Origin: Lachnospiraceae bacterium
Lineage (GTDB): Bacteria > Bacillota > Clostridia > Lachnospirales > Lachnospiraceae
Direction: 5' to 3'
Assembly: GCA_021199655.1 (NCBI GenBank)
Contig: JAJQHQ010000019.1
Span: forward strand, 12,511-76,510
Length of the DNA: 64,000 nt
The first letter of the stretch is position 1. The number at the start of each line of letters is the position of its first letter. The notes below the pieces were generated by a model that saw nothing but the letters and a program-made list of their open reading frames with translations, had not been told where the DNA came from and did no database searches. Position numbers and translations under genes: made by a program. Below, in pieces: positions 142 through 62,921 of the stretch.

Positions 142-168
142 GTAACTGTGAAGGTACTGAACAGTTAC
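142..168 (+). repeat. GTAAC-hairpin (REP-like) repeat, archetype copy GTAACTGT-GAAGGTACTGA-ACAGTTAC
   Basis: 8-bp perfect inverted termini around an 11-nt loop. The exact reverse complement recurs at 3565-3591, and near copies occur at more than 8 other sites. Confidence 0.85.
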
Positions 169-1708: not shown

Positions 1709-1747
1709 TTCAATGAAAACAGCGCATGATAATTGCAGAAAAGAGAT

Positions 1748-3568
1748 ATGCTTATGCAAATCAGATATGGGATTGTGACAGCACAGAACTGTTTTTTACG
1801 CGGAAATAACAACGGGATAGAAGATGAGATTTTTTCCGGCTGGGCGGTTCGGGTTTTCCCGGAGACGGAGGAGAATGGCCGGGTAAAAATTGAGACCCAT
1901 TATGGATACGAAGGATATGTGTACAAAGACCAGCTTGCCCTGATCAGCCGGGAAACGCTTGCTGACAGGCAGGATCACACCCGCTTTTTCCGTATAGGAG
2001 TCCCTGCTGCGGATGTGCTGGATCAGCCGAAGGTGCAGGGACTGCTTCTGGAGCGTCTGCTGAAAAATTCAATCGTGGAGCGGGTGACCGAAGCCTCTGA
2101 CATGGACGGCTGGTGTCTCGTGCGCACTGCCGCCGGGGGTGTCGGCTATATGCATGAGAATTATCTGCGTATGCGTCAGGATGACGACGGATATTTGCTG
2201 GAGACGGAAAATCAGACAGAACCGGAATTGCTGCAGAAGAAGACGCGGACAGAGCCGGAAACCATGTCAGCCGGAAACAATTTACCGGAGAGCCAGATGG
2301 AAAATGGCAGGATCGGATACTTTGAAAAACGATTTCAGGAGAATCCTCCGGAAGAGGAAAGTTTTCGTGACGGCGTTGTGCGAAGCGCCCGCTCTTATCT
2401 GGGGGTACAGTACCGCTGGGGAGGAAAATCTTCTCTGGGGCTGGATTGCTCCGGCCTGGCATTTATGAGTTATCTGGAAAACGGCGTTCTGATTTATCGC
2501 GATGCGAAGATAAAGCCCGGATATCCGATTTTTGAAATACCGCGGGAAAAGCTGAAACCGGGGGATCTGATTTTCTTCCCGGGACATGTGGCAATCTATC
2601 TGGGAGAAGGGCGCTACATTCATTCTACCGGATACAAAAAGACTCCGTATGTTACCATCAACAGTCTGAACCCTGCGGATGAGGATTATCGGGCGGATCT
2701 GGCAGCTTCAATCACAGCCTGCGGGAGCATATTTTCAGCGTTAGAGCCTTCGCTTTGCCCGGAGGCAGAAAGGTTTGTTCATGAACCCGATGAAAAATTC
2801 GAAGCCCTGCGCAGGCGTCTGGATGCGATGCCCGGCAATCTCAGTGCGGTATATAAAGATCTGACGACCGGAGAGGTGTTTTTGTATCGGGAAGAAGAAC
2901 CGCATATTGCCGCGAGCGTGATCAAGCTGTTTTTGATGGCGGCTGTTTTTCAGGGATTTGCGGAGGGTGCTTTTTCTCCGGAGGAGCGGATTCTGATCCG
3001 GCGTGAGGACTGTGTGCCGTCCTGCGGGGTGCTGACATACCTGCAGGGAGAGTGTACGGTCAGCGTCCGTGATCTGACGGAGCTGATGATTATTGTCAGT
3101 GACAACACTGCTGCAAATGTCCTGTTTGATCTGGTCGGGGAGGAACGTCTTGCGGAGTTTTTGTCTGATAAGCTCGGCCTGAAAAAGACGGTGTTCCGCA
3201 GAAAAATGTTTGATGCCGGACGGGCCGCACAGGGAATCGAGAATTATGTGACAGCGGCGGACGCGGCCTGGCTGCTGGAGCGGATCTATAAAGGGGAACT
3301 GGTTTCCCGGGAGGCATCAAAAGAAATGTATCAGATCCTGACGCACCAGCGGCTGAACGGTAAAATTCCGTTTTATCTGCATACCTTCGCCAATGCACCG
3401 GTGATCGCGCATAAGACCGGTGAGGACAGCGGCGTCACGCATGACGTGGCCATAGTGGAAGGCGAGAGGCCGTTTGTGCTTTGCTTTCTTGGGAACGAAA
3501 CAAATGTGGCGGACTATGAACGGCTGATGGCGGAGACGGCACGGGATCTATATCTGAAAAGCTGGTAA
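1748..3568 (+). CDS. SH3b-like + NlpC/P60 gamma-D-Glu-diamino-acid endopeptidase fused to a class-A beta-lactamase-like serine hydrolase domain
   Basis: NlpC/P60 core GLDCSGL...PGDLIFFPGHVAIYLG...IHS. The C-terminal half has S-x-x-K (ASVIK), SDN (VSDNTA) and KTG (HKTGED). Start is uncertain (TTG 1733, ATG 1748 or 1754). Confidence 0.8.
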   Translation: MLMQIRYGIVTAQNCFLRGNNNGIEDEIFSGWAVRVFPETEENGRVKIETHYGYEGYVYKDQLALISRETLADRQDHTRFFRIGVPAADVLDQPKVQGLLLERLLKNSIVERVTEASDMDGWCLVRTAAGGVGYMHENYLRMRQDDDGYLLETENQTEPELLQKKTRTEPETMSAGNNLPESQMENGRIGYFEKRFQENPPEEESFRDGVVRSARSYLGVQYRWGGKSSLGLDCSGLAFMSYLENGVLIYRDAKIKPGYPIFEIPREKLKPGDLIFFPGHVAIYLGEGRYIHSTGYKKTPYVTINSLNPADEDYRADLAASITACGSIFSALEPSLCPEAERFVHEPDEKFEALRRRLDAMPGNLSAVYKDLTTGEVFLYREEEPHIAASVIKLFLMAAVFQGFAEGAFSPEERILIRREDCVPSCGVLTYLQGECTVSVRDLTELMIIVSDNTAANVLFDLVGEERLAEFLSDKLGLKKTVFRRKMFDAGRAAQGIENYVTAADAAWLLERIYKGELVSREASKEMYQILTHQRLNGKIPFYLHTFANAPVIAHKTGEDSGVTHDVAIVEGERPFVLCFLGNETNVADYERLMAETARDLYLKSW

Positions 3569-3591
3569 CTGTTCAGTACCTTCACAGTTAC
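3565..3591 (-). repeat. GTAAC-hairpin repeat, exact inverted copy
   Basis: GTAACTGTTCAGTACCTTCACAGTTAC is the exact reverse complement of 142-168. Its TAA (3566-3568) is the stop codon of the upstream ORF. Confidence 0.9.
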
Positions 3592-3711
3592 AAAAGCTGC
3601 ACATAAGATCGTCAGGGATTTGATGTGATATCCGGGAACTCTGATACATAACGATCCGGAACAGCAGGCCGCAGGCCTGCGCATCATAAAAGATACGGAG
3701 AATCATTCGAT

Positions 3712-9421: not shown

Positions 9422-9448
9422 TTAACTGTGAAAGCACTGAACAGTTAC
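9422..9448 (+). repeat. GTAAC-hairpin repeat copy
   Basis: TTAACTGTGAAAGCACTGAACAGTTAC, ending 9 nt before the dapL Shine-Dalgarno. Confidence 0.8.
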
Positions 9449-9468: not shown

Positions 9469-10683
9469 ATGTTTAAGATCAATGAAAACTATTTAAAGCT
9501 GCCGGGCAGCTACCTTTTTTCCACGATTGCGAAAAAGGTGAATGAATTTCAGGCGGCAAACCCGGATAAATCCGTGATCCGTCTCGGCATCGGCGACGTG
9601 ACGCAGCCGCTTGCTCCGGTGATCATCGATGCGCTGCACGGCGCGGTGGATGAGATGGGAAAGGCGGAGACTTTCCACGGATACGCGCCGGATCTCGGTT
9701 ATGAATTTTTGCGCACGGCGATCGCGAAGAATGACTACGCAGACCGCGGCTGCGACATTGCAGCGGATGAGATCTTTGTGTCTGACGGTGCGAAGTGCGA
9801 TTCGGGCAACATTCAGGAAATCTTCAGTGTGGACAATAAGATTGCAGTGTGCGATCCGGTATACCCGGTTTATGTGGATACCAACGTCATGGCAGGCCGC
9901 ACCGGCACCTATGACCCGAAGACGGAGATGTGGAGCGATGTGATCTATATGCCGTGCACGGCGGAAAATAATTTTGCACCGGAGCTTCCGAAGGAGACGC
10001 CGGACCTGATTTATCTTTGCTTCCCGAACAACCCGACCGGAGCGACTATCACAAAGGAGCAGCTTCAGGTGTGGGTAGACTATGCGAATAAAGTCGGCGC
10101 AGTCATCATCTACGACGCCGCATATGAGGCATATATTTCTGAACCGGATGTGCCGCATACGATATTTGAGTGCGAGGGCGCGCGCACCTGTGCGATCGAG
10201 CTCAAATCCTTCTCCAAGAACGCCGGTTTTACCGGAACACGTCTGGGCTATACGGTGATTCCGAAGGATTTGAAGAGCGGTGATGTGATGCTGCATTCTC
10301 TCTGGGCGAGACGCCACGGTACCAAGTACAACGGCGCTCCGTACATCCAGCAGCGTGCGGGAGAAGCCGTCTACTCACCGGAAGGCAAGGAGCAGCTTGC
10401 GAAGCAGGTGGCGTACTATATGAATAATGCAAAGGTCATCAAAGAAGGACTTCAGGAGGCCGGTTACACTGTTTCCGGCGGTGTGAACGCTCCGTATATC
10501 TGGCTTAAGACACCGGGAACGATGACATCCTGGGAATTCTTTGATTACCTGCTGGAAAACGCAAATGTGGTTGGTACGCCGGGTTCCGGCTTCGGACCGA
10601 GCGGCGAAGGCTACTTTCGCCTGACCGCGTTCGGCACCTATGAGAACACCGTGGCCGCGCTGGAGCGAATAAAAAGAATGTAA
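9469..10683 (+). CDS. dapL: LL-diaminopimelate aminotransferase
   Basis: N-terminus [27 protein letters not shown] Lys context [15 protein letters not shown], adjacent to dapF. Confidence 0.9.
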
Positions 10684-10826
10684 GTGACTATTCAGGACAG
10701 TACTTCGCACTTGCTGCGAAGTACGTATGAAAACGTATATTATGTAGGGAAAAGCCCCATCGCGGCGCGGAGACGCGATTTTAAATGGGCTTTTCCCTCG
10801 TAACTGTGAAGGGACTGAACAGTTAC
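10684..10826 (+). mobile_element. Composite MITE-like repeat (143 bp) bounded by GTAAC-family termini
   Basis: Left end GTGACTATTCAGGACAG starts one base after the dapL TAA. The right end is hairpin copy 10800-10826. Internal perfect stems are 10700-10724 and 10747-10758/10787-10798. Confidence 0.6.
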
Positions 10827-13484: not shown

Positions 13485-13502
13485 AAAAAGGATAAAATGT
13501 CG

Positions 13503-13544
13503 AGCGCCTGTTCGGGACAGTTCCTCGCACTTGCTGCGAGGAAC
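13503..13544 (+). repeat. Partial copy of the 10684-10724 repeat arm with a compensated hairpin
   Basis: CCTGTTCGGGACAG + GTTCCTCGCA-CTTGC-TGCGAGGAAC, compared with CTATTCAGGACAG + GTACTTCGCA-CTTGC-TGCGAAGTAC at 10688-10724. Confidence 0.7.
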
Positions 13545-13577
13545 GAAACAGAATGCAAGAAAAAGGAGCAACAGAGT

Positions 13578-14498
13578 ATGAAAAAACCGGTACTGGTAGT
13601 GATGGCGGCGGGTATGGGCAGTCGCTACGGAGGATTGAAACAGATTGACCCGGTCGATCCGGAAGGGCATATTATCATGGACTTTTCTGTCTATGACGCC
13701 GTCCGCGCCGGATTTGAAAAGGTGATTTTCATTATCAAACGGGAAAATGAAGCGGATTTTCGCGCAGCCATTGGCGACCGCCTCGCCGGGCACATAGAAG
13801 TGGAATACGTTTATCAGGAGCTGACAAACCTTCCGGAAGGGTTTTCCGTGCCGGAGGGCCGTGTGAAACCGTGGGGGACCGGACATGCTGTCTTAAGCTG
13901 TCAGGGAACTGCGGACGGTCCGATGGTCGTTATCAACGCGGATGATTTCTATGGAAGAAACGCGTTTGCGCTGGCGTATGATTTTCTCACACGGAAAGAG
14001 GAAGCCGCAGGCCGCTACATGATGGTCGGCTATCGTCTGGAAAACACACTGACGGAGAACGGATCTGTGGCGCGCGGCGTTTGCAGTACAGATGAGAATG
14101 GTTATCTGAAAACGATCACAGAGCGCACCAGCATTGAACGGCATGGCGACCGGATCGCATACACAGAGGACGGCGGCGCAAGCTGGAATGAGCTTCCCCC
14201 GGATACTACCGTTTCTCTGAATATGTGGGGCTTTTCCGGGGATATTCTTACAGAACTGAACGAGCGCTTCCGGGCATTCCTCGCGGAGAATCTGCCGAAA
14301 AACCCGCTGAAATGCGAGTATTTCCTGCCCTTTGTCGTGGATGAACTGCTGACAGAAGGAAAGGCGACGGTGAAAGTCGAGAAAACTCCGGATAAATGGT
14401 ACGGGGTGACATATAAAGAAGACAAGCCGGCACTGATGGCGGCAATTCAGAAGATGAAGGATGAAGGGGTTTACCCACAGAAGCTGTGGGAAAAGTAA
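13578..14498 (+). CDS. Sugar-phosphate nucleotidyltransferase family protein (substrate unknown)
   Basis: N-terminal VVMAAGMGSRYGGLKQI signature and WGTGHAV. AAGGAG lies 9 nt before ATG 13578; the track ORF begins at 13497 inside a repeat. Confidence 0.7.
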   Translation: MKKPVLVVMAAGMGSRYGGLKQIDPVDPEGHIIMDFSVYDAVRAGFEKVIFIIKRENEADFRAAIGDRLAGHIEVEYVYQELTNLPEGFSVPEGRVKPWGTGHAVLSCQGTADGPMVVINADDFYGRNAFALAYDFLTRKEEAAGRYMMVGYRLENTLTENGSVARGVCSTDENGYLKTITERTSIERHGDRIAYTEDGGASWNELPPDTTVSLNMWGFSGDILTELNERFRAFLAENLPKNPLKCEYFLPFVVDELLTEGKATVKVEKTPDKWYGVTYKEDKPALMAAIQKMKDEGVYPQKLWEK

Positions 14499-14665
14499 CA
14501 TTAGTTCAGAACAGCAGACCACAGGTCTCCGCTCCGCTCCGGTCGGTGCTTAACGTGTGCCACTGGCACGCAGCACCCGCCCATCCCAAGAAGAAAAGAC
14601 AGCCTTTAGCAGACAAGTCTGCACAGGCTGTCTTTTCTTCTTGCTGCTGTTCTGAACTGTTTCAC
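14495..14665 (+). mobile_element. Composite MITE-like repeat (171 bp) with inverted termini
   Basis: Termini are GTAACATTAGTTCAGAACAGCAG (14495-14517) and CTGCTGTTCTGAACTGTTTCAC (14644-14665). It carries module 1 (14525-14548) and a 19-bp perfect stem (14587-14605/14625-14643). Its TAA is the stop of the upstream gene. Confidence 0.7.
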
Positions 14666-37100: not shown

Positions 37101-37211
37101 ACAGTAATTGCGAAGGTGCTGAACAGATTGTACGAAGCGACAGCTGCGAAGGTACTGAACATACTGAACAGATTGTACGAAGCGGCAGCTGTGAAGACAC
37201 CGGGCAGTTAT
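37101..37211 (+). repeat. Tandem array of three degenerate GTAAC-hairpin units
   Basis: Units are 37101-37139, 37140-37184 and 37185-37211, each containing GCGAAGGTRCTGAACAG-like cores. The array ends 5 nt before the SD of the next gene. Confidence 0.7.
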
Positions 37212-39213: not shown

Positions 39214-40245
39214 ATGCACGATAGTGTATCATCTGCTATGCCTTGTTTTATGAACAAAATCACCTGTTTGTGTAACAAGAAACGGAAGCTGAAAACCCAG
39301 ATGAATGTGTCAAACGATGAAGATCAGGAATACACAACAGAAGGCAGAAATAATAATGCAAAGGCGAAACGTACGCGGCTGGATGATGCAGCTTTACGTG
39401 ACGCTATTGACATCCTGGATTCTATAAAATTCGCACTGACAGATGTCCTGCTGAATGCGGATTCGTTTGCGGGAGCCTGTAAAAAAAGGGGTTTGTATCA
39501 TATAAATATAAAAAAATTGTTGATTTCAAAAGCGTTTTCAGCCTGCCGGACAGAAGGGCCGCCTTTGCGGCTGGAAGAAACTGTTGTCCTGGAACCGGAT
39601 GGGTTTGAACAGCTTTATCTGGATGTTTTCGGGATGGATGCGATATGCGATGCAGAGCTTCCATTGGACTTCCGTCAGACGGTTTTTGATGTGATCGGGC
39701 AATTAAACGAGCAGGAGCAGAAGGTCCTCCGTTTACGATACGGGTTTTGCGACAAATACGGCATTCCGTTAACATTGGAAAAAACAGGATGTGAACTTGG
39801 CATTACAGCCCCTCGGGTTAAGGTAATTCAGAATAATGCTCTTTGCAAATTGCAGCACCCGCCTTTAAAAACCTGGCTGATGGAAGGATCCATTCAATAT
39901 CAGGCCAGACAGAAAGTTCTTCAGTCGGATCTGGATACATACAAAGCTACTGTTTACTCCTGGTTGAATAGTCATATTGCAAAAACAGACCGAGCCGGGC
40001 GGCAGGAAAACGATATAAAAAGCGACATAAAAGCCGAAGACATTTATTCACTGGGGATTGATGCCATGGGTTTTTCAAATCGAACCGGCAACTGTCTGAA
40101 ACGTGCCGGGAAAAACACGTTTCGTGACGTTCTTGAGCTTACGGAAGAGGATATGTCTAAAATACGCGGACTGGGGTGGAAATGCCGGGAGGAAATCAAT
40201 CGGAAACGCATGGAATGGCTGACGAAGCAAGATGATAATATTTAA
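39214..40245 (+). CDS. Protein combining a sigma-70 region-4-like HTH with an RNAP alpha-CTD-like helix-hairpin-helix domain
   Basis: EQEQKVLRLRYGF...LTLEKTGCELGITAPRVKVIQNNALCKLQHP fits the sigma region 4 pattern. GFSNRTGNCLKRAGKNTFRDVLELTEEDMSKIRGLGWKCREEI fits the alpha-CTD pattern. Start codon uncertain. Confidence 0.55.
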   Translation: MHDSVSSAMPCFMNKITCLCNKKRKLKTQMNVSNDEDQEYTTEGRNNNAKAKRTRLDDAALRDAIDILDSIKFALTDVLLNADSFAGACKKRGLYHINIKKLLISKAFSACRTEGPPLRLEETVVLEPDGFEQLYLDVFGMDAICDAELPLDFRQTVFDVIGQLNEQEQKVLRLRYGFCDKYGIPLTLEKTGCELGITAPRVKVIQNNALCKLQHPPLKTWLMEGSIQYQARQKVLQSDLDTYKATVYSWLNSHIAKTDRAGRQENDIKSDIKAEDIYSLGIDAMGFSNRTGNCLKRAGKNTFRDVLELTEEDMSKIRGLGWKCREEINRKRMEWLTKQDDNI

Positions 40246-40261
40246 GGTACTGAAGAGTTAC
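40244..40261 (+). repeat. Partial GTAAC-hairpin repeat (right half)
   Basis: AAGGTACTGAAGAGTTAC, overlapping the TAA stop (40243-40245) of the upstream gene. Confidence 0.6.
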
Positions 40262-42595: not shown

Positions 42596-45500
42596 ATGAA
42601 AGCAGGGCATCTGAAAAATAATACACATACAAAGACTGCTTTTTTAATATTTTGTATTGTATTATTTACAGTCTCTATGAGTATAATGAAGGTCCGTGCT
42701 GAAGATACAGAGTTTCCGTTTTCGGGAGATGGCTCAAAGGATTCCCCTTATCTGATTCAAAGTGTGGAAGAACTGTGCGAATTTCGGGATCTGGTGAATG
42801 AAGGAGAAGAGTTTCAGGACTGTTATTTTTACCAGACCGGGAATCTTGATCTCGGCGGTATGGATTGGGTTCCGATCGGGATTTATGGGAGCGGCCATTA
42901 CTTTTATGGTGTCTATGACGGCGGAGGACACTATCTGGAAAATCTTACAATTGTCGAGCCAATCGATCCGGGAGAGAATGAGTCATCCAGTAAGCCGGGG
43001 CTGTTTGGACAGCTGGCAGGCATTGTCCTGAATCTGGGAATCGAAAGCGGTGAGATTGAAGGCACTTACTGCGGCTCCATTGCAAGCCATGCTGTGTCAG
43101 GTGCTTCTCCTTATATTATCAACTGCTATAATAAAGCGGATGTTAAGGGCCGGCGGGCCGGCGGGATCGCTGACAACTTCAGCGGTGGAACGATCATTAA
43201 CTGCTGGTACAGCGCGAATATAGAGAGCTTATCCGGGACGGCATCAGGACCGGCTTCTTATGATGGAATACTGATTGACTGTTTCGGCATCACGGATGAT
43301 TACGCGGATTCCTTTCTGGGAACGATCATTGCCGCCCGCGGGACCGGTTCGGAATCGGATCAGTCGGGTGACAGCCGGATTTTTGATGCAGGTCTTTTTT
43401 ATTTGCCTGAGGAAATTGATATTGATATGCTGATCCCATGGGAATGGGACGAAGATGAAAATGAGCTGGTTTTTTCAGAAAACACTTCTGCACAGGTATC
43501 GGTAAATGCGGAAACGGCCTTTGAGGGAGAAGGGACAGAAGCGGAGCCTTATCTGATTCAATCCTGGTCGGATCTGTGTATGTTCCGCTATCTGGTAAAT
43601 ACAGGGAATGAGTTTTCCGGTATTTATTTTCAGCAGACAGCGGATATTGCAATAGAAAGTGACGACTGGATTCCTGTTGGTATCTGCGGGAGCGGGAATT
43701 ACTTTTACGGCATATACGACGGTGCGGGACATGCCATTACGGGCCTGAGAACCAAATACCATATGGATTCGGAACAGGACAGCAAAGGGCTTTTTGGGCA
43801 GCTGGGCGGTGTGGTAGCCAATCTCAGACTGGAAGCGGTCGATATGGAAGGGGCTTATTGCGGAGCAATCGCCGCAATGGCTGCAGGCAAAGGTGAGGAA
43901 CGTACCGCTGCTATTTTGAACTGCTTTGTCAGTGGTTCCATAACCGGATACCGTGTTGGCGGAATTGCAGATTACTTTTCAGAGGCAACCATAGCGAATT
44001 GTATCAGCGATGTTACGATCACATTATATGAAGATGCCGGGGACTGGGAAGACAATACCGGCGGTATTCTTTCTTCCAGTCTGGACACGAAGGTCTATGG
44101 ATGCCGTACAACGGCAGCGCAGGTCATGCCGGATGCATATACCAGCGCTACATCAGGTGTGATCACGGCAGAGGATCTGCAGGATAAAGGATTTGTCCTC
44201 CGGCAGAACATACGCACTGCATTGACTCAGGAACTGTTTGCAAACCGGTTTGGCGTCCGCCTGATGCAGTGGGAACTGACAGAGGAAGGCATTCTACAAT
44301 TCGGGGAAGGGCAGCTGTATCTCCTGCTGTTTGACTGGATGAATCTGTATCTGCTTCCGGTCCTGCTGCTTGTTTTTATCATTTCCATTCTGATATTAAT
44401 GAAAAAAACCGGTATTAAGAGGTTTGAAGATCGATATCATCAGCAGATTTCTGCGGTTCTGATCATTTCGGCGATCCTTTCCGTATTTGTTGACTGTGCC
44501 GCGTTTGGAACCGCAAAAGGGTCATTATGTTTTGGTAATCTGTGTTTTGTTATACAGATCCATGTTGTTTTTGCAGCATCGCTCCTGTTGTTTACAGGAT
44601 ATGTTCGTACTCACGGTCGGAGGAATATCCGCATTGGCCGCGGAAACAGGACCGGCCTCATTACATTGTCTGCAGTGATGCTGCTGACATTGATTCTGGA
44701 GCTGCGGCAATTTGGCATTACGCCTCTCTATGATGCCTCTCTATATTATGGAAGCCTGGTGAGAGGAGTGAAATTATTTCGCCTGGATCTGTTCAGCTAT
44801 ATCGGCGCTTTTGTATGCTGGAAATGGGCGCAGGGAAGTGCTTTGCTGATCGCTCCGCTTGAGTTTCTGCTGCCGGGACAGATGACAGGCGTATATGTGT
44901 CAAATATTATCATAACGGAAATTACGATCGTGGTCATGTACCGTCTCTTAAAAGAATCCATAAGTGACTGCTCTCCTGTGCTTGCGGCTCTGTCGGGCGC
45001 CATTTTGATTTTTTGTCCCTATCAGTTAGGAATGTTTACGTATCTTAATTTTGATACGTACCTTTCCTGTTATGTAATCTGGCTGTTATACAGCTACAGA
45101 CGAAAGAACAATCTGATGATTGCGTTTTGCGGCTATTTGCTTTGCTTCACCAAGATAACCGGGGGTATCTTTTACGTGTTGTTTCTTGTGGCAGCTTCTG
45201 TGTATGAAGCGCTCAGACGATATACCGGATCCTGGCTCAGACGTATGGCCGGATGGTGGAGCTGGCCCAGATGTATCATCTGGATGGTCCCGGGATTTCT
45301 CTATCTGGGCGCCTATCTGTTCGGCGACTGGCTGACTATACAGCACTTCGAGGGAGCCTATGTGATCTCGGCAATGGCTTCGGCAAAAACACTGGTTTCC
45401 GCAGGAAATACTCTGGTGCAGGCATTTGTATTTGGATTTCGGTGGCTTTTCCTGCTGATCATCATCGCTGCGGGGATTCTGTGGCTGATATGCCCTCCGG

Positions 45501-46432
45501 GACGCCATCAGACGATCGATCAGGAAGGCACACAGCTTGTCTGCGGGTTACTGGCAGGAACTGTTTTTGTTATTCTGATGCTGCTTTTGTATAATGGCAA
45601 TGCGGAATGTCCCCGATATACGGCGATCCTGAATTCGGTATATTGCATTCTGATTCCGATTGTGGTATCATTTCTCGGGCATCAGGCAGCAACTGCCGGC
45701 CATGCGGTGGAAGCGCCCCCTCCCTTACGGTCGGCGGCAGGTTGCGCCGTCAATGAGAGAAACGCTGCGCGTTTGGACGGCGCTGCAGTATCTGCGGGAA
45801 AGCAGACTCCTCTGCCGGCAGCTGTGATGGGGGTTCTGGCCGTCCTGCTGCTGATACAGACGTACTGGACGATCGATCCGGTCATCCTGGTGCATGGTTC
45901 GGGAATTGATACCGGAAAGAAGACATTGTATCGTCTGGCTCTTGATCAGGATTCCCGTTCAGGGATGAATCTGGGAGCTGATTATAGTGAATATACAGCT
46001 GTAGGGGATATTTATGCTTATAATATTGAGTACAGCTATTATAACAGCCTGATCCGGGAAGCAATGACGGAGATTGAGCCTGATAAAGAGGATCAGTTTT
46101 ACATTCTGGATCTGATCACATATGAGATGCATCTTAGCGGGGAGCAGTATCCCATTTACTGGAACTCCCGATTAGGAAAAATGACCTATGACGGCGAGGA
46201 TGAGGACAGTATATTACTTTCACAGGAAAGTATAAAAACGGAAGATCTCTGTGCGGCAGATATCGGCTCATTGGAATTAGAAGAGGAATTTTATCTGGTA
46301 GTTGCGGCGCGCGTGGATGAGCAGGCCGCGGTGGACCGCATTCTGGAAGAAGGATATGAAGCAGCGGAAGTACTCGAATATGAGAATCTATACGGGGCGA
46401 TGAGTGTATACCGCTTTGTTAAACAGTCCTGA
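42596..46432 (+). CDS. 1278-aa surface/membrane protein: signal peptide, two GLUG-like modules, GT-C-like polytopic domain, C-terminal soluble domain
   Basis: Modules are at about 42715-43215 and 43520-44010 (PYLIQS...QTxDxxL...WxPIG...YDGxGH...GLFGQL...NCxN...GGIADxF), followed by more than 10 TM helices. Confidence 0.6.
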   Translation: MKAGHLKNNTHTKTAFLIFCIVLFTVSMSIMKVRAEDTEFPFSGDGSKDSPYLIQSVEELCEFRDLVNEGEEFQDCYFYQTGNLDLGGMDWVPIGIYGSGHYFYGVYDGGGHYLENLTIVEPIDPGENESSSKPGLFGQLAGIVLNLGIESGEIEGTYCGSIASHAVSGASPYIINCYNKADVKGRRAGGIADNFSGGTIINCWYSANIESLSGTASGPASYDGILIDCFGITDDYADSFLGTIIAARGTGSESDQSGDSRIFDAGLFYLPEEIDIDMLIPWEWDEDENELVFSENTSAQVSVNAETAFEGEGTEAEPYLIQSWSDLCMFRYLVNTGNEFSGIYFQQTADIAIESDDWIPVGICGSGNYFYGIYDGAGHAITGLRTKYHMDSEQDSKGLFGQLGGVVANLRLEAVDMEGAYCGAIAAMAAGKGEERTAAILNCFVSGSITGYRVGGIADYFSEATIANCISDVTITLYEDAGDWEDNTGGILSSSLDTKVYGCRTTAAQVMPDAYTSATSGVITAEDLQDKGFVLRQNIRTALTQELFANRFGVRLMQWELTEEGILQFGEGQLYLLLFDWMNLYLLPVLLLVFIISILILMKKTGIKRFEDRYHQQISAVLIISAILSVFVDCAAFGTAKGSLCFGNLCFVIQIHVVFAASLLLFTGYVRTHGRRNIRIGRGNRTGLITLSAVMLLTLILELRQFGITPLYDASLYYGSLVRGVKLFRLDLFSYIGAFVCWKWAQGSALLIAPLEFLLPGQMTGVYVSNIIITEITIVVMYRLLKESISDCSPVLAALSGAILIFCPYQLGMFTYLNFDTYLSCYVIWLLYSYRRKNNLMIAFCGYLLCFTKITGGIFYVLFLVAASVYEALRRYTGSWLRRMAGWWSWPRCIIWMVPGFLYLGAYLFGDWLTIQHFEGAYVISAMASAKTLVSAGNTLVQAFVFGFRWLFLLIIIAAGILWLICPPGRHQTIDQEGTQLVCGLLAGTVFVILMLLLYNGNAECPRYTAILNSVYCILIPIVVSFLGHQAATAGHAVEAPPPLRSAAGCAVNERNAARLDGAAVSAGKQTPLPAAVMGVLAVLLLIQTYWTIDPVILVHGSGIDTGKKTLYRLALDQDSRSGMNLGADYSEYTAVGDIYAYNIEYSYYNSLIREAMTEIEPDKEDQFYILDLITYEMHLSGEQYPIYWNSRLGKMTYDGEDEDSILLSQESIKTEDLCAADIGSLELEEEFYLVVAARVDEQAAVDRILEEGYEAAEVLEYENLYGAMSVYRFVKQS
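45712..45790 (+). repeat. GC-rich repeat modules read in frame in the 1278-aa ORF
   Basis: Degenerate module 1 at 45716-45737 (..CTTACGGTCGGCGG). Module 2 ATGAGAGAAACGCTGCGCGTTTGGACGGC at 45753-45781. Confidence 0.75.
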
Positions 46433-46468: not shown

Positions 46469-47824
46469 ATGAACCACTGGGAAAATGAGACAGAGGCACG
46501 GGAAGAAATTAAAAGCCTGGTAACGGAATATTACCATCAGTTCAAAGAAAAGAAAAACGATTTTCACGAGGGAGACCGCATCTCCTATGCCTCAAGAGTG
46601 TATGACGAAAAAGAAATGTGCGCGCTGACGGACGCGACGCTGGACTTCTGGCTGACGACGGGCCGCTTTGCGGATCAGTTTGAAAAAGATTTTGCGAAGT
46701 GGATCGGTGTGCGGTATGCGCATCTGGTCAACAGCGGTTCCTCTGCGAATCTGATCGCGTTTATGGCGCTGACGGCGCCGGAGCTTGGGGAGCGGCAGAT
46801 CCGGCGGGGAGATGAGATCATTACCGTCGCCTGTGGGTTTCCCACCACTGTGACGCCGATCCTGAACTACGGCGCGGTGCCGGTCTTTGTGGATGTGACC
46901 GTTCCGCAGTACAACATTGACGTCACAAAACTGGAGGCTGCTCTCTCAGAAAAGACGAAAGCCGTCATGATCGCGCATACGCTCGGCAATCCGTTTGATC
47001 TTCAGCAGGTAAAGGCATTCTGCGATGCGCATGATCTCTGGCTGGTGGAGGACAACTGCGACGCACTCGGCACACAGTATACGATCAACGGTGAGACGAA
47101 ATACACCGGCACCTGGGGCGATATCGGGACCAGCAGCTTCTATCCGCCGCACCATATGACGATGGGGGAAGGCGGATGCGTCTATACGGATAATCCTCTG
47201 CTTCATAAGCTGATCCTATCCTACCGCGACTGGGGACGCGACTGTATCTGCCCATCCGGAAGAGACAATTTCTGCGGGCACCGGTTCGATGGGCAGCACG
47301 GGGAGCTTCCGCAGGGCTATGATCATAAATATGTCTACAGTCATTTTGGATATAATTTAAAGGTGACCGATCTGCAGGCGGCGATTGGCTGCGAGCAGCT
47401 GAAGAAATTCCCGTCCTTTATCGAGCGCCGCCGGCACAACTGGGACAGGCTGTATGCGGCTCTGGAAGGCGCGCAGGATAAGCTGATCCTGCCCGAGCCG
47501 GCGGATCACAGCCGCCCGTCATGGTTTGGTTTTCTGATCAGTGTGAGGGAAGAGAGCGGTCTGGATCGCAACAAAGTGACCCGGTATATCGAAGAGCACA
47601 ATGTACAGACGAGACTTTTGTTTTCCGGGAACCTGATCAAACATCCCTGTTTCGATCAGATTCGAGGCACGGACGCGTATCGTGTGGCGGGAAGTCTGGA
47701 TGCGACGGAATTTATCATGAACAACACGTTCTGGGTGGGCGTCTACCCGGGGATGACAGATGAAATGATCGACTATATGGCAAAGGTGATACTTGAGGCG
47801 ACAGATTGCCGGAGAAACAGGTAA
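46469..47824 (+). CDS. rfbH: CDP-4-keto-6-deoxy-D-glucose 3-dehydrase (E1, RfbH/DdhC type)
   Basis: DegT-fold with SSFYPPHHMTMGEGG (His where aminotransferases have the Schiff-base Lys) and a C-x-C-x7-C cluster (DCICPSGRDNFC). Confidence 0.85.
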   Translation: MNHWENETEAREEIKSLVTEYYHQFKEKKNDFHEGDRISYASRVYDEKEMCALTDATLDFWLTTGRFADQFEKDFAKWIGVRYAHLVNSGSSANLIAFMALTAPELGERQIRRGDEIITVACGFPTTVTPILNYGAVPVFVDVTVPQYNIDVTKLEAALSEKTKAVMIAHTLGNPFDLQQVKAFCDAHDLWLVEDNCDALGTQYTINGETKYTGTWGDIGTSSFYPPHHMTMGEGGCVYTDNPLLHKLILSYRDWGRDCICPSGRDNFCGHRFDGQHGELPQGYDHKYVYSHFGYNLKVTDLQAAIGCEQLKKFPSFIERRRHNWDRLYAALEGAQDKLILPEPADHSRPSWFGFLISVREESGLDRNKVTRYIEEHNVQTRLLFSGNLIKHPCFDQIRGTDAYRVAGSLDATEFIMNNTFWVGVYPGMTDEMIDYMAKVILEATDCRRNR

Positions 47825-47858
47825 CTGTGATGGTACGGAACAGTATTGAAACAGTTAC
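47821..47858 (+). repeat. GTAAC-hairpin repeat copy with expanded loop
   Basis: GTAACTGTGATGGTACGGAACAGTATTGAAACAGTTAC. Its TAA (47822-47824) is the rfbH stop. Confidence 0.75.
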
Positions 47859-49722: not shown

Positions 49723-50697
49723 ATGGAAACCGGGGACAATATACAGGTGAAACAGAGTATGATACACAGAACGATCAGAAATGCGGTAGTGACAGGACCT
49801 ACCGGAGCGATTGGAACTGCCTTATGCAAAAAACTGCTGTCGGAAGGCATTCATGTATGGGCCGTCTGCCGGCCGGGGAGTGCACGGGCAGCTGACCTGC
49901 CCGAAGACGAGCATTTGGATATCGTCTATTGTGATGCAAAGGACATTCTGACACTGCCTGACCGGATTCCTGTCAGAGTGCAGGCTTTCTTTCATCTGGC
50001 ATGGGCCCATACGATCGGGGAAGGCCGGAATGATATGATCGCTCAGACGGAAAATATACAGTACACGCTGTATGCTGTGCAGTGTGCCGCGAGGCTGGGC
50101 TGTCAGGTATTTATCGGAGCCGGGAGTCAGGCGGAGTATGGCCGGGTAAATGGTCCGCTTCGCGCGGATACCCCCTGCAATCCTGAAAATGGATATGGCA
50201 TGGCCAAGCTGTGTGCGGGACAGATGAGCCGTGTGGAAGCCGGGAAACTTCAGGTTGCACATGTCTGGCCGCGGGTATTGTCGGTATATGGTCCGCATGA
50301 GCACCCGTCAACGATGACCTCATTTTTGACGAAGACTCTTTTGAGAGGGGAAAAACCTGCTCTGACAGCGGGAGAACAGATATGGGATTATCTGTATTCG
50401 GCGGACGCGGCAGATGCTTTTTACCGAATGGCTGTATCGGGCAGGGACGGTGCGGTGTATCCGCTTGGAAGCGGCGAAGCGCGTCCCTTAAAAGAGTATA
50501 TTGGCAAGATCCGGGATACGATCGATCCGGCTCTGCCACTGGGGCTGGGAGAGATCCCTTATGGTAAGCTTCAGGTGATGCATCTGGAAGCGGATATCAC
50601 TGCTCTTAAGGAAGATACAGGCTTTGAAGCACATACGGATTTTGCGACAGGAATAAAAGAGACAATAGACTGGATCAGGAGTCGGGAAAATGAGTAA
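49723..50697 (+). CDS. NAD(P)-dependent epimerase/reductase (extended SDR)
   Basis: VTGPTGAIGTAL and YGMAK (YxxxK). GGAGGAG lies 6 nt before the ATG. Confidence 0.8.
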   Translation: METGDNIQVKQSMIHRTIRNAVVTGPTGAIGTALCKKLLSEGIHVWAVCRPGSARAADLPEDEHLDIVYCDAKDILTLPDRIPVRVQAFFHLAWAHTIGEGRNDMIAQTENIQYTLYAVQCAARLGCQVFIGAGSQAEYGRVNGPLRADTPCNPENGYGMAKLCAGQMSRVEAGKLQVAHVWPRVLSVYGPHEHPSTMTSFLTKTLLRGEKPALTAGEQIWDYLYSADAADAFYRMAVSGRDGAVYPLGSGEARPLKEYIGKIRDTIDPALPLGLGEIPYGKLQVMHLEADITALKEDTGFEAHTDFATGIKETIDWIRSRENE

Positions 50698-51637
50698 AGA
50701 GAAGAAAAAGATATCTGTGATGATCCCCTGCTATAATGAGGAAGAAAATGTGGTTCCCATCAGCGAAGCGGTCGTAGATATTTTAAATAAAGAACTGCCG
50801 GAATATGATTATGAAATCCTGTTTATCGACAACTGCTCTACGGATAAGACCAGAGATCTGCTTCGGGCTATCTGCAGTCAGAACAAAAAGATCAGGGCAA
50901 TCCTGAACGCCAGAAATTTTGGACAGTTTAATTCCCCCTACTATGGACTTTGCCAGACGACGGGAGACTGTACGATCTCTCTGTGCTGTGATTTTCAGGA
51001 TCCGGTGGAACTGATCCCGGTGTTTGTTCATGAATGGGAAAAAGGCTATAAGATCGTCAGCGGGATTAAGACGTCCAGCAAGGAAAATCGTTTTATTTAT
51101 TTTTTGAGAACCGTATATTATAAGCTGATCAAAAATATGTCGTCCGTGGATATGATCGAGCACTTCACCGGTTTTGGACTGTATGATAAAGACTTTATCC
51201 AGCTGCTTCGCGATCTGGAGGATCCGATTCCGTTTATCCGTGGGGTGGTTGCGGAATTTGGCTATAAACGAAAGGAAATCGAATACGAGCAGCCGAAACG
51301 GAGAGCGGGGAAAACACACAACAATTTTTATTCCCTGTATGATGCCGCCATGTTGAGCTTCACTTCTTACACGAAGGTCGGACTGCGGCTGGCAAGCTTT
51401 GTGGGATATATCTGTGCGTTTTTCAGTTTTGTAGTCGGAATCGTATATTTTGTTCAGAAGCTTCTGCACTGGAACGACTTTTCAGCCGGCATGGCGCCGC
51501 TGGTCATAGGACTGTTTTTCCTGTCCGGCATTGAGCTGATCTTTATCGGATTTCTGGGAGAATATGTCATGAATATCAACCAGAGAGTGATGAACAGGCC
51601 TCTGGTGATAGAAGAAGAGAGAATCAATTTTGAGTAA
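50690..51637 (+). CDS. GT2 polyprenyl-phosphate glycosyltransferase (GtrB/ArnC-like) with two C-terminal TM helices
   Basis: ISVMIPCYNEEENV, FIDNCSTDKT, CDFQDP. The C-terminal TM pair is typical of GtrB. Confidence 0.8.
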   Translation: MSKEKKKISVMIPCYNEEENVVPISEAVVDILNKELPEYDYEILFIDNCSTDKTRDLLRAICSQNKKIRAILNARNFGQFNSPYYGLCQTTGDCTISLCCDFQDPVELIPVFVHEWEKGYKIVSGIKTSSKENRFIYFLRTVYYKLIKNMSSVDMIEHFTGFGLYDKDFIQLLRDLEDPIPFIRGVVAEFGYKRKEIEYEQPKRRAGKTHNNFYSLYDAAMLSFTSYTKVGLRLASFVGYICAFFSFVVGIVYFVQKLLHWNDFSAGMAPLVIGLFFLSGIELIFIGFLGEYVMNINQRVMNRPLVIEEERINFE

Positions 51638-51809
51638 CAGTTCAGAACAGCATCGAAATGAAAAGACAGACCGTGCAGGTTTACCTGCAAAAGGCTGTAT
51701 TTTCATTTCGGGATGGGCGGAACGCCCATCAAGCCTCAGACATATGACGCGCAGGCGGCATATAGCCTTCGAAGAAGGCGGTCTGTGGCCTGCTGTTCTG
51801 AACAGTTAC
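51634..51809 (+). mobile_element. Composite MITE-like repeat (176 bp) with near-perfect inverted termini
   Basis: GTAACAGTTCAGAACAGCA (51634-51652) / TGCTGTTCTGAACAGTTAC (51791-51809), 18/19 complementary. The interior shares GAAAAGACAG with 14495-14665. Its TAA is the stop of the GT2 gene. Confidence 0.7.
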
Positions 51810-51884
51810 AATTTTGAGGGCGACGACGATAATACTTAATACCAGAAACCATTCAGGAACTGTCTGAATGTCAGGAGAAGAAGA

Positions 51885-54242
51885 ATGCGGAAGGAAAGAT
51901 ACCTGCGGAAGAAAAAGAACATGGGTACAGACCCTGTGTTTTTGATTTTTCTGATTTTTTCTGTTATCATACCCGGTCTGTATGCCGGAATCCTGTATAA
52001 TCAGACCATGCCGTTTGCGGAGGGATGGTATACTTATTATGCGCAGTGCATCAACGACGGACTGATGCCATACCGGGACTTTGAGTATCTGTTTTCCCCG
52101 GTATATATTTATTTTATAGCGCTGGTAACGAGGATTTTCGGCTATAAGATCATTGTGCTTCGCGTGCTTGGCGTGCTGTTTTTCTGTATCATTTCGGCAC
52201 TGCTCTATATTCTGATCTGCAATATTCTGGAGACAAGAAATAAATACTGTGTTGCTTTCATTGCGGCCGCAACAGCGGTTTTTTATCTGCAGTCGGAAGT
52301 GGTGCAGATCTTTTATGATTATATCCGGATGATGGATATTTTTGCCATTCTCTCGGTATTGTTCCTTGTAAAAACGGTAAAAACAGCCGAAAGAGCGGAA
52401 AGCTGTACCCGGGATCTTCTGCTGTGCGGTCTGTTTACCGGCCTGTTTATCAATGTGAAACAGAACATGGGGCTTGTTTTTCTGGCGTACGCCTTTATCC
52501 TGCTGATCTATGTCGGTCTCTATATGAAAAAAGGGATAAAAGAGACAGGAAAAGCTCTTCTGCTGTTTCTGGCGCCGATCGCTGTTCTGACGGGAATCAT
52601 CTATGCCTTTTTGTTCTCTCATGGGGCTTTATCTGCTTATCTGCAGTCTACGGGCGCGGGCGCGGTCAGCACCAAAGGCGGGATGGCAAAGATCCTGTTC
52701 GGCTGGATTGTGAATAACAGCGCCTCTTTCATAAGGGCGTTGCCTTTTGCTGTCATTGGTCTCTGTGTCATTTGCCTGCTGCTGTTTCGCAATGAAAAAA
52801 GAAAAGATCAGGCGATCGGCGGCCATTTGGACAGCCTGTACGGTATTGCCTTTTTTCTGGCTGCCGGTGCGCTGATCCTGCTGCTTGCGTTCCAGAAATC
52901 CTTTGCATATGCGGTCTCTTTTGAACACTATCCAAGCCCATATCTTTTGTTTCTTATTGTGTTTCCCCTGTTTGTTTTTTGGGGAGTATGCGGAATAGCT
53001 GACATGATCAGGGGAAGCGCATTGCTTAAGAAGTATATGCTGTATTTTGTTGTGGCCGGTTCTTATTTCGCGATCGCATTCGGATGCGGGACTTCAGGCG
53101 GTCTGGCGGAAGGACAGTCATCCTTAGGGGTCGCGCTTCTGGTTACTTTGCTCTTTACGCTTCTTGCCGGCGGAACGGATGCGCAGGGAAACAATAAGGC
53201 AGAAAAAATAGTAAAGGGGGCTGTGTCCATTGCCTGTCTTTTTCTTGTTCTGCAATGCGCGGATAAGAAAATGATCAATACGTATTACTGGTGGGGCATG
53301 GATGAATCTGATTTCTGGTCCAACACGGCTGTGTCGGATATTCCTCTTCTGGAAGGGATCGGGCTGTCTGCGGAAACAAAAGAGGTATATGAGGGAATCT
53401 ATGATGCCATCGTAAATCATACGGAAGAGGATGACGCCATTTTCTGTTTTCCTCAGATTCCCATATTCTATAGCTTATGCGACAGAACGGATCCGGGTAC
53501 GACGACCAAAGTGCAGTGGTTTGATGTTTCCACTGACGAATCCATAGAGGAAGATATCGAATATCTGAAAGAAAATCTGCCGAAGGCGATCATTCTGTAT
53601 AATACGACGGAAGAGACTTATGATTCCCATGAGAGTGCCTTTCGGAATGGAGAAGTCTCCGGGACCAGAGAAATGCGGGAGTTTTTATATAATCTGGTGT
53701 ACGAATATGACTATACCTTTTATGGCCGCTATGAAGCAAACAGCAATGTGATACAGGTGTGGATACTGGAAGAAGATGGATACGAAGCCGGAAGCACGAC
53801 GGAAGTGTTTGCCGGCGGCAGCGGCACGTATGAAGACCCGTATCTGATCGAGACGGCAGACCAGCTGATGCTGTTTGCCAGGATGGTAAATGAGGGAAGA
53901 AGCTTTGAAGGCAGTTATATCAGGCAGACCGCGGATATCGATCTGGAAGGTTATGACTGGGTGCCCATCGGCGAATATGGTTCCGGCGCATATTTTTACG
54001 GCACCTACGATGGCGCGGGTCATGTGATCCGAAATATGACCTTTGATGATTCGGGAAGCAATGGAGGCCTGTTCGGAGCGTTGGCAGGAGAAGTCTATAA
54101 TCTGGGCCTTGAGGGCGGCCTGATCAATGGTAACTGTGCAGGGGGGGATCACCAGCCACTCTTATGGAGAAAACGCAAAAATTGTCAACTGCTATACGGA
54201 TCTGGCTGTTTCCGGAAACAGGGCCGGAGGCATTGCGGATAA
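51885..54242 (+). CDS. GT-C-like (ArnT/PMT-like) polytopic glycosyltransferase with a C-terminal GLUG-like module; reading frame lost at a G7 tract
   Basis: N-terminal TM bundle with the MPYRDFEY loop. The GLUG-like module starts at about 53800 (EDPYLIE...QTADIDL...WVPIG...YDGAGH). The last 31 codons after 54147 are out of frame. Confidence 0.7.
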   Translation: MRKERYLRKKKNMGTDPVFLIFLIFSVIIPGLYAGILYNQTMPFAEGWYTYYAQCINDGLMPYRDFEYLFSPVYIYFIALVTRIFGYKIIVLRVLGVLFFCIISALLYILICNILETRNKYCVAFIAAATAVFYLQSEVVQIFYDYIRMMDIFAILSVLFLVKTVKTAERAESCTRDLLLCGLFTGLFINVKQNMGLVFLAYAFILLIYVGLYMKKGIKETGKALLLFLAPIAVLTGIIYAFLFSHGALSAYLQSTGAGAVSTKGGMAKILFGWIVNNSASFIRALPFAVIGLCVICLLLFRNEKRKDQAIGGHLDSLYGIAFFLAAGALILLLAFQKSFAYAVSFEHYPSPYLLFLIVFPLFVFWGVCGIADMIRGSALLKKYMLYFVVAGSYFAIAFGCGTSGGLAEGQSSLGVALLVTLLFTLLAGGTDAQGNNKAEKIVKGAVSIACLFLVLQCADKKMINTYYWWGMDESDFWSNTAVSDIPLLEGIGLSAETKEVYEGIYDAIVNHTEEDDAIFCFPQIPIFYSLCDRTDPGTTTKVQWFDVSTDESIEEDIEYLKENLPKAIILYNTTEETYDSHESAFRNGEVSGTREMREFLYNLVYEYDYTFYGRYEANSNVIQVWILEEDGYEAGSTTEVFAGGSGTYEDPYLIETADQLMLFARMVNEGRSFEGSYIRQTADIDLEGYDWVPIGEYGSGAYFYGTYDGAGHVIRNMTFDDSGSNGGLFGALAGEVYNLGLEGGLINGNCAGGDHQPLLWRKRKNCQLLYGSGCFRKQGRRHCG

Positions 54243-54629: not shown

Positions 54630-54656
54630 GTAATTGTTCAGTACCTTCACAGCTAC
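54630..54656 (-). repeat. GTAAC-hairpin repeat, inverted copy
   Basis: GTAATTGTTCAGTACCTTCACAGCTAC, 25/27 identical to 3565-3591. Confidence 0.8.
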
Positions 54657-62902: not shown

Positions 62903-62921
62903 GATCGGAAATGTTCCGCGA

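Follow-up and report, generated by a model that had tools for sequence, protein, structure and literature searches.

The region analyzed here, called the window below, is a stretch of 64,000 nucleotides from a Lachnospiraceae bacterium (assembly GCA_021199655.1, contig JAJQHQ010000019.1, positions 12,511 to 76,510 of the forward strand) and is numbered from its first letter. It carries a family of short repeats bounded by a terminal inverted repeat (TIR), so that both ends of an element read G-TAA-C inward, and at four places the TAA of such an end is the stop codon of a protein-coding gene. The window was compared with related loci (L-numbers, L001-L123) and with homologous proteins (P-numbers, e.g. 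P0124 and P0002), and the tabulations of the repeat cover the window and 120 related loci, not whole genomes. The four genes, a dapL-like gene directly followed by a full-length copy, and the repeats attached to them are the following.

1733..3568, + strand: gene coding for an NlpC/P60 and beta-lactamase-like protein, ending in the TAA of the repeat
3557..3564, unstranded: duplication AAAAGCTG (8 bp) of the 3565 element, left copy
3565..3591, - strand: solo 27-bp unit GTAACTGTTCAGTACCTTCACAGTTAC, whose first GTAAC gives the last base of a TGG codon and the stop codon TAA (3566-3568)
3592..3606, + strand: right copy of AAAAGCTG (3592-3599), then what is left of the native gene end (TG-C ACA TAA), former stop codon at 3604-3606
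9469..10683, + strand: dapL-like gene; the element starts on the next base
10676-10683 and 10827-10834, unstranded: the two copies of the duplication GAATGTAA of the 10684 element, containing the dapL-like stop codon TAA (10681-10683)
10684..10826, + strand: full-length 143-nt element with left TIR GTGACTATTCAG, two internal hairpins and the 27-mer as right end
13497..14498, + strand: nucleotidyltransferase gene, ending in the TAA of the repeat
14495..14665, unstranded: 171-nt long-TIR variant (GTAACATTAGTTCAGAACAGCAG ... CTGCTGTTCTGAACTGTTTCAC) with no target duplication, giving the nucleotidyltransferase stop codon TAA (14496-14498)
46469..47824, + strand: DegT/RfbH-like gene, ending in the TAA of the repeat
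47821..47858, + strand: 38-nt variant of the solo unit, supplying the stop codon TAA (47822-47824) of the DegT/RfbH-like gene
50690..51637, + strand: GT2 glycosyltransferase gene, ending in the TAA of the repeat
51634..51809, unstranded: 176-nt long-TIR variant (GTAACAGTTCAGAACAGCAT ... CTGCTGTTCTGAACAGTTAC), inverted with respect to the 14495 copy and giving the stop codon TAA (51635-51637)
51810..51839, + strand: right copy of AATTTTGA (51810-51817; left copy at 51626-51633) with the orphaned tail GGC GAC GAC GAT AAT ACT TAA (GDDDNT*)

A sequence-only reading of the window had noticed that the first GTAAC of the repeat contains the stop codon of the preceding open reading frame (ORF) at 3565, 14495, 47821 and 51634. 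This was borne out, the TAA occupying bases 2-4 of GTAAC in all four cases and the four ORFs all lying on the + strand. The two sites which it had placed close to this pattern, 10684 after the dapL-like gene and 40243 in a sigma-like gene, were also confirmed, the dapL-like TAA being inside the duplication GAATGTAA.

The TIR is about 15 bp long and reads GTAAC(T/A)(G/A)TTCAG(T/A)AC; the end sequence of the family can also be written GTAACTRTTCAGWAC. According to the list of flanks, full-length elements start with GTAACTATTCAG... and finish with ...GTAACTGTGAAGGTACTGAACAGTTAC, as does the window copy 10684-10826. They form a class of about 133-143 bp with two internal hairpins and a 27-bp palindromic unit as right end, and this unit is also listed solo, then with its own identical 8 bases on either side. 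Long-TIR variants of about 175 bp have a TIR of 20 nt (GTAACAGTTCAGAACAGCAG). Altogether, copies of 27, 38, 62-81, 132-143, 164-236 and ~175 nt were observed, with no internal ORF. The inverted repeats extend over 12-20 nt across copies, and the left TIR GTAACTATTCAG pairs with CTGAACAGTTAC in 25 of the 25 aligned copies. Insertions were found in both orientations relative to the flanking gene. In the window, GTAAC alone is not enriched (49 found for 53 expected); the exact composite palindrome is present 3 times for 0 expected, and near matches to the 12-mer core CTGAACAGTTAC 20 times for 2.7 expected.

A systematic search for 8-bp direct repeats with at most one mismatch revealed such repeats around 67 copies, of which 23 are solo units and 44 are longer (mostly 132-143 nt, some 62-236 nt). 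Among the window copies, duplications flank those at 142 (GAATGATA / GAATGCTA), 3565 (AAAAGCTG on both sides), 10684-10826 (GAATGTAA on both sides) and 51634-51809 (AATTTTGA on both sides). GTAAC and GTTAC lie between the two copies of the duplication and are thus part of the element, not of the target. The targets reconstructed from 66 copies are AT-rich over ~25 nt, with 2-10% C against a background of 23%, and positions 1 and 2 of the duplication are G in 62% and A in 62% of the full-length copies, respectively; TTAC is absent from the logo of these 66 targets. The host genomes have ~50% G+C and are gene-dense, and AT-rich DNA occurs in them mainly around gene ends.

Filled and empty sites could be compared between relatives. 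Positions 62903..62910 of the window are an empty target site GATCGGAA, directly after the stop codon TAA (62900-62902) of a GtrA-like gene. At the orthologous GtrA-like site of L117 (16863-16889) and of L118, a solo 27-mer is present and the sequence reads GTAA-GATCGGAG-(27-mer)-GATCGGAG-ATGC; the window, which reads GTAA-GATCGGAA-ATGT at 62899-62914, is the clean empty partner of L117/L118 (the L118 contig ends inside the repeat). The window site 51634 is filled and that of L115/L116 empty, and the window site 3565 is filled and that of L119 empty. No GTAAC-like sequence was found at the stop codon in the empty sites of the relatives examined.

The sequence-only reading had proposed, as one of two alternatives, that insertion is targeted to a TAA/TTAC context in the way known for ISHp608. 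Elements of the IS200/IS605 insertion sequence (IS) family make no target duplication, have no TIRs, carry different subterminal hairpins at their two ends and insert 3' of a fixed tetranucleotide, which is TTAC for ISHp608. A single-stranded element of this type, or a REP/RAYT element, inserting 3' of a TTAC/GTAAC-like target would preferentially hit TAA-containing sites such as stop codons; it would be compatible with the ends GTAAC...GTTAC, with the hairpin of the 27-mer and with covarying subterminal hairpins that recall HUH-recognised ends. It is nevertheless very improbable in view of the 67 copies with 8-bp direct duplications outside GTAAC...GTTAC, of ends that are true inverted repeats, of the absence of TTAC from the target logo and of GTAAC from the empty sites, and of the occurrence of both orientations. 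The proposed targeting has to be given up, since GTAAC belongs to the TIR and the target logo is AT-rich, with GA at the first two positions of the duplication. Short length, termini made of TIRs, a duplication of constant length (8 bp), a high copy number and presence/absence variation are the properties of MITEs (miniature transposable elements with inverted repeats). The repeats are therefore, in all likelihood, a family of such non-autonomous DNA transposons, and the TAA of their TIR stops the genes that were hit in their last codons.

The former gene ends could be reconstructed at 3565 and 51634. After removal of the 3565 element and of one duplication, the NlpC/P60 gene ends in ...CTG AAA AGC TGC ACA TAA (...LYLKSCT*), the present end being ...LYLKSW*. 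The L119 homologue P0124 (77% amino acid identity), which has no element, ends in QKSHK*, with its stop codon where the reconstruction (KSCT*) predicts it. The 3565 insertion is common to L120 (96% amino acid identity) and to L104, a sister species (92-95% nucleotide identity), and is thus old. At the GT2 gene the duplication is perfect and its downstream copy runs on as GAG GGC GAC GAC GAT AAT ACT TAA up to the former stop codon at 51837-51839, so that six residues (GDDDNT) were cut off by the insertion. All the GT2 homologues examined (74-99% identity) have a 3-15-residue acidic tail past RINF[ED], whereas the window protein ends in ...RINFE*; P0002 (99% amino acid identity, L115/L116) ends in NFETDQSD* at a locus without the element. 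Clipping of native C-termini, the other alternative of the sequence-only reading, is thus supported at both sites by perfect duplications, in-frame former stop codons and tails of the predicted length in relatives lacking the element. In nine reconstructed insertions overall, the native tails lost are of 0-7 residues.

The reconstructed frame of the RfbH-like gene at 47821 reads ...RRNSKKEMTG*, its end overlapping the next gene (TPP-enzyme) at an ATGA. In L117/L118 (89% nucleotide identity), a different partial element lies 15 nt further upstream in the RfbH-like gene, again with the junction GGG-TAA-C, and the downstream RfbH remnant has no stop codon in this frame before that ATGA. The new junction in L117/L118 thus again uses the stop codon of the TIR.

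Clipping does not apply to the 14495 site. The nucleotidyltransferase homologues have 0-3 residues after ...KLW, and this protein has thus lost few residues or none. In L121 (91% amino acid identity) and L123 (85%), the nucleotidyltransferase gene is followed, with overlapping stop and start codons, by a gene for an APH-like kinase (PF01636) of 377-404 residues, and the promoter region of a phosphate-binding-protein gene is found 3' of the kinase. Alignment of window 14495-14796 with L121 2421-3554 and L123 2493-3707 revealed that the kinase gene is missing and that the 171-nt element stands exactly in its place. As the kinase gene has been replaced, the nucleotidyltransferase has lost its probable kinase partner. 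The 14495 site is an element-associated deletion, to which the overlap with the stop codon applies and neither of the two explanations offered for it by the sequence-only reading; the deletion may have arisen by recombination between two copies or as a transposase-made adjacent deletion. The 14495-14665 and 51634-51809 copies, which have opposite orientations, are 81% identical over 91 nt.

The relation between the repeat and stop codons was then tabulated in 8-kb stretches, not genome-wide. Of 315 GTAACs at element termini, 20 hold the stop codon of an ORF that is 150 codons long or longer; among the other GTAACs, 16 out of 871 do so (Fisher p = 2e-4). The overlap is thus beyond chance, as had been claimed from the window; the argument from spacer placement used for that claim calls for a caveat, because the G-TAA-C class gathers every in-frame insertion in a gene 3' end and is not the single spacer position which had been assumed. 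Among long incoming ORFs, ~26 stop codons cluster 2-18 nt upstream of the element and a spike of 11 is located at G-TAA-C. The 2-18-nt cluster corresponds to insertions just after the stop codon, which is often inside the duplication, as at dapL.

Before curation, ORFs of 200 codons or more run into the termini 19, 6 and 3 times in the three frames, only one of which meets the TAA. Curation removed duplicates among orthologues, sites other than elements, and ORFs that lack a Pfam match and resemble antisense shadow ORFs, the last category comprising five ORFs (L092, L112 minus strand, L017, L032 and L113). After curation, 12 independent real genes were found in the stop frame and 0 in either other frame. 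These are the genes of the four window sites, the RfbH-like gene of L117, and genes of L006 (AP_endonuc_2), L011 (a 1545-codon ORF), L023 (RfbC-like), L035 (DUF308), L073 (CbiA), L094 (Cation_efflux) and L112 (HEM4 + TP_methylase). The 14495 copy was added manually, the automatic screen having missed it on account of an indel in its TIR.

Target choice explains part of this bias, since a duplication that begins with GA tends to begin in phase, with a codon for Glu or Asp. When the target weight matrix was applied to the last eight codons of the window genes, it predicted 52% of the insertions in the stop frame, against 33% without preference, and all four genes entered by the left end of the element have duplications starting with GAA/GAC in phase. 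Both results would be expected if the bias came wholly from a preference for 8-mers starting with GA, with no selection at all. We hold this to be unlikely, because the genes entered by the right end are mostly off the GA rule and the probability of 12 out of 12, which is 2e-6 for three equal frames, is still 4e-4 at 52% (5e-3 at 52% for the 8 non-window cases). Since 12 out of 12 is improbable even with the target preference, selection probably contributes, and the remaining bias is probably due to selection against the other frames. Insertions in those frames would add at least 9-19 element-encoded residues to the protein; only near-silent insertions survive.

The window copy 10684-10826 has a predicted folding energy of -61.2 kcal/mol (z = -6.6), and the 27-mer is predicted to fold as a hairpin. 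In the 25-copy alignment, the TIR pairing and hairpin 1 (three positions) display 11-13 double substitutions per pair with pairing kept, and the inner 5-bp stem of hairpin 2 exists in seven perfectly complementary versions, found in 22 of the 25 copies. The hairpins may be conserved either for transposition or for action on the mRNA. In the latter case, the 27-mer or hairpin could chiefly be a host cis-element, either a post-stop RNA hairpin for operon mRNA or a protein-binding site, and its overlap with stop codons a functional positioning. Strong cross-genus conservation, stable hairpins with compensatory changes, the location of copies in short operon spacers, often just upstream of the next ribosome-binding site, and old copies kept in place across lineages (3565, 9422) are compatible with such a role. 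On the other hand, the duplications and the filled/empty polymorphisms show that the copies arrived by insertion, they occur in both orientations, and many are decaying in place (9422, 17474, 40235 and 62330). No Rfam family matched any copy, either at the gathering threshold over the whole window or with E up to 1 for two regions, the only matches being spurious ones of miRNA precursors to the long hairpin. Terminator and promoter scans of two long window copies gave nothing convincing. A primary function as a cis-element is accordingly improbable; a secondary host use of the repeat may exist beside transposition.

The ends ...TAAC / GTTA... also resemble the core sites of integron attC sites (consensus RYYYAAC ... 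GTTRRRY), which often abut the stop codons of cassettes. That the repeats are attC-like sites overlapping cassette stop codons is extremely improbable, as they are bordered by 8-bp duplications, their flanks are syntenic housekeeping and polysaccharide genes and not cassettes, no integrase is present in the window, and copies lie upstream of genes and in both orientations.

For the MITE family, the 8-bp duplication and the TIRs point to a DDE transposase, with an IS66-like or IS6-like parent as no more than a lead. In the 120 loci and the window, no transposase was enclosed by two TIRs that lie 300-4000 bp from each other and have matching 8-bp flanks, the sole such pair belonging to a 351-bp non-coding element in L099, and the ORFs next to unpaired termini are all ordinary genes. 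A scan of viral contigs with the 15-nt TIR gave 82 mostly chance matches, a few MITEs and no parent element. By blastn against plasmids, no match was obtained for the 159-nt element and one weak match, to an Agathobacter rectalis plasmid, for the 35-mer.

The clean 27 + 8 bp insertion in L117 and tandem 27 + 8 nt arrays in the window and in L119 favour a 27-bp unit moving by itself, and the direct GTAACT repeat at both borders of the missing part favours solo units as deletion products of full elements. A more far-reaching proposal is that the GTAAC terminus is a built-in stop for harmless settling in last codons, with the 12-to-0 rule being selected, and/or that the 27-bp palindrome is itself a mobile unit; we put it forward tentatively, as a doubtful possibility. 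If true, the built-in stop would let the family settle in gene-dense gut Firmicutes and the frame rule would be a selected property of the element-host relationship, while the 27-bp palindrome would imply an unusual synapsis or a hairpin-based mechanism. To our knowledge, a mobile 27-bp unit would be the smallest bacterial transposable unit.

Several points weigh against the interpretation as mobile elements with a selected stop frame. No autonomous element with the TIRs of the family was found in ~1 Mb of related loci, the viral collection and the plasmids, so that the transposase class is drawn only from duplication length and TIRs. The sample used for the tabulation consists of 8-kb stretches picked by an exact 22-mer, and the target matrix includes a few in-gene insertions, which makes the frame test at 52% mildly circular. 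A double-stranded length of 27 bp is very short for a paired-end transposition complex, and the solo units could be deletion products formed via the GTAACT direct repeats, the data separating neither route. The duplication at the RfbH-like gene is imperfect (GAAACAG / AAAACAG), and the L117 copy in this gene may have arisen by a second insertion or by rearrangement of the ancestral one. Finally, the empty GT2 site of L115 is not clean: its sequence 3' of AATTTTGA is unlike that of the window, and the site is thus also a recombination boundary.

In the mechanism that we propose, a MITE, probably moved by a DDE transposase, inserts into AT-rich DNA, preferably at an 8-mer starting with GA and mainly around gene ends. 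As both ends read G-TAA-C inward, a copy landing in the last codons with its duplication ending at codon position 2 completes one sense codon with the G of the element and then stops translation with the TAA. The native tail (0-7 residues) and the native stop codon are left orphaned 3' of the element, and insertions in other frames, with their 9-19 or more extra residues, are probably removed by selection. The elements can also rearrange flanking DNA, as shown by the 14495 copy which replaces the kinase gene and whose TIR again gives the stop codon.

The other copies in the window are listed below.

142..168, + strand: solo 27-bp unit with duplication GAATGATA (134-141) / GAATGCTA (169-176), 18 nt past the stop codon of a solute-binding protein gene
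9422..9448, + strand: degenerate solo unit (TTAACTGTGAAAGCACTGAACAGTTAC) just upstream of the ribosome-binding site of the dapL-like gene, in place in L120
17474..17509, + strand: left-truncated copy that retains the right end of a full-length element; it starts 7 nt past the TAG stop codon at 17465-17467 and is 82% identical to 10791-10834
37104..37200, + strand: tandem array of degenerate 27-mer-like units, each with an 8-nt GAAGCGRC spacer
40235..40261, + strand: degenerate 27-mer; the sigma70_r4/alpha-CTD gene extends over its first 8 nt and then ends in TAA (40243-40245), a place occupied by GAA in the canonical unit
54630..54656, - strand: variant of the solo unit (GTAATTGTTCAGTACCTTCACAGCTAC) with flanks TCGGATCC / TCGAATTC, 6/8 identical
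62330..62378, + strand: 49-nt degenerate copy (GTAACTGCTCGG ... GTACGGAACAGTTGC), 3 nt past the TGA of a small acyl-carrier-like ORF

A three-unit array similar to that at 37104, with the spacer GAATA(C/A)GG, is present at ~3770-3840 of L119. Such 27 + 8 nt arrays look like the product of repeated insertion into a duplicated target or of unequal exchange. L120 was considered as a clean empty site for the 142 copy and was dropped, since the alignment shows a 13-nt left-half-like remnant and no intact copy and is ambiguous. For the dapL-like protein, the only exact match is on one short contig identical to the window.

Other features were noted in the same region. Upstream of the sigma70_r4/alpha-CTD gene, a 9-nt A-rich tandem repeat (AAAAAAATC) occupies 39037-39080; the gene itself combines sigma-70 region 4 and the RNA polymerase alpha C-terminal domain, an unusual pairing. 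The segment 46416-46455, considered as an element fragment giving the TGA of ORF 42596..46432, was rejected because L117 has homologous coding sequence there. This ORF, 51885..54242 and 58015..60420 share repeated segments of 57-60 nt with 65-82% identity, located at 42832-43733, 53817-54024 and 58135-58298; the three large ORFs may thus have a repeat domain in common, in surface or glycosyltransferase-like proteins. The polysaccharide cluster is 98.4-99.8% identical between the window and L115 apart from variable parts (regions 42711-45783 and 51645-51930, L115/L116): the window codes for a repeat-rich protein of 1278 residues, against 259 residues for the protein at this place in L115, and the spacer after the GT2 gene is also different. 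Both regions are strain-variable cassettes. The sole Rfam match in the window at the gathering threshold is a GA-cis RNA (RF02987, 45.6 bits) at 45705-45788 on the - strand, which belongs to a four-copy direct-repeat family (also 13301-13346, 26394-26439 and 28805-28850), some copies lying inside long ORFs.

One genome per species was scanned for the exact 22-nt core TGTGAAGGNACTGAACAGTTAC, which was detected in at least 113 stretches from about 60 assemblies, nearly all Lachnospiraceae. Among the matches listed, the hosts are Blautia, Dorea, Oliverpabstia, Murimonas, Fusicatenibacter, Marvinbryantia, Robinsoniella, Roseburia, Clostridium fessum and many metagenome-assembled genomes. Bins labelled Alistipes, Prevotella, Bacteroidaceae or Holdemanella also carry the repeat (L009, L014, L019, L046, L054, L068, L087, L098, L101, L107 and L112); these are probably mis-binned Lachnospiraceae contigs and not the result of a spread to Bacteroidota. 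Metagenome or short-read contigs often end in or beside the repeat (L001, L118 and many other loci, such as L012, L018, L037, L046 and L062), indicating that the family fragments Lachnospiraceae assemblies. The 351-nt non-coding element of L099 (5018-5368) has related ends GTAACTATTCAGAGCC ... GGTGCTGAATAGTTAT and flanks GATATGAG / GATATGGG, and L038 (minus strand, offset 5083 on the reverse complement) is listed with it; the L099/L038 element may represent a further size class within this superfamily.

Literature searches by repeat sequence found no description of the family, only unrelated primer matches; those combining MITE and Lachnospiraceae gave nothing relevant, and those on MITEs with Blautia, Roseburia and related genera, a query that was too broad, gave unrelated papers only. 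The family was apparently undescribed before. Lachnospiraceae are major commensals of the human gut, and the 3' ends of their genes are repeatedly rewritten by this repeat, so that stop codons, short C-terminal tails and operon start/stop overlaps (as between the RfbH-like gene and the next one) differ between close relatives. The repeat breaks metagenome assemblies, several contigs ending inside copies, and is linked here to genome change through the loss of a kinase gene. It provides a natural data set on the frame-restricted survival of insertions and a candidate for an extremely small mobile unit.

With respect to known systems, canonical IS66 members code for an IS66-type transposase with tnpA/tnpB accessory genes. 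The inverted repeats of the IS66 family are of 20-30 bp and start with GTAAGCG, and the direct repeats are of 8 bp (PMC11946415). The present repeats share with it the 8-bp direct repeats and a TIR starting with GTAA, but only the first four bases agree (GTAAC-TGTTCAG against GTAAGCG) and no IS66-type genes were found near any copy; the two common features make IS66 a lead and not a proven relative. In the IS6/IS26 family, the 14-bp TIR consensus is GGTTCTGTTGCAAA, which has G at position 7 and begins with GG, the start that characterises the core family; the duplication is of 8 bp, and the long clostridial ISs formerly assigned to the family (ISCpe7, ISCbo1 and ISTet2) rarely start with GG (PMC6807381). 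The duplication length is again common to both, GGTTCTGTTGCAAA shares CTGTT at positions 5-9 and G7 with GTAACTGTTCAGTA (7/14 positions), and the long clostridial group occurs in Clostridia. In contrast, the TIR of the present family starts with GT and not GG, its position 7 is mostly A in the left TIR and G in the right TIR only, no such transposase is found next to any copy, and cointegrate formation of the IS26 type does not obviously fit a 27-bp unit. ISHp608 and other IS200/IS605 elements, PATEs, and REPs with RAYT are similar as hairpin-rich repeats at gene ends with a terminal ...TTAC, and differ by the 8-bp duplications, the true TIRs and the targets without TTAC found here.

Other comparable repeats are ERIC, the Correia/NEMIS repeats of Neisseria and, in Streptococcus pneumoniae, RUP/BOX; gene ends are affected in a similar way by Correia elements, ERIC and Rickettsia palindromic elements. 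In the case of MITEAba12 of Acinetobacter, 31 bases of the element are joined to the 3' end of one gene, which leads to a stop codon, and the consensus has stop codons in all six frames (PMC6382973). The present family resembles MITEAba12 in being short and non-coding, with TIRs, a fixed-length duplication, many copies, presence/absence differences, stable hairpins and a new stop codon at the gene end. It differs from MITEs of this type by another TIR sequence, the 8-bp duplication, its Lachnospiraceae hosts and the lack of a known parent IS, as well as by a solo 27-bp unit with its own duplication, by internal hairpins that covary, and by a stop codon formed by bases 2-4 of the TIR, no other frame being found in real genes (12 to 0). 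The fusion of a MITE to the end of a gene, with donation of a stop codon, was thus already known. What is notable here is how strictly the frame is kept, besides the 27-bp unit and the covariation of the hairpins: such events are ordinary, their regularity in this family is unusual.

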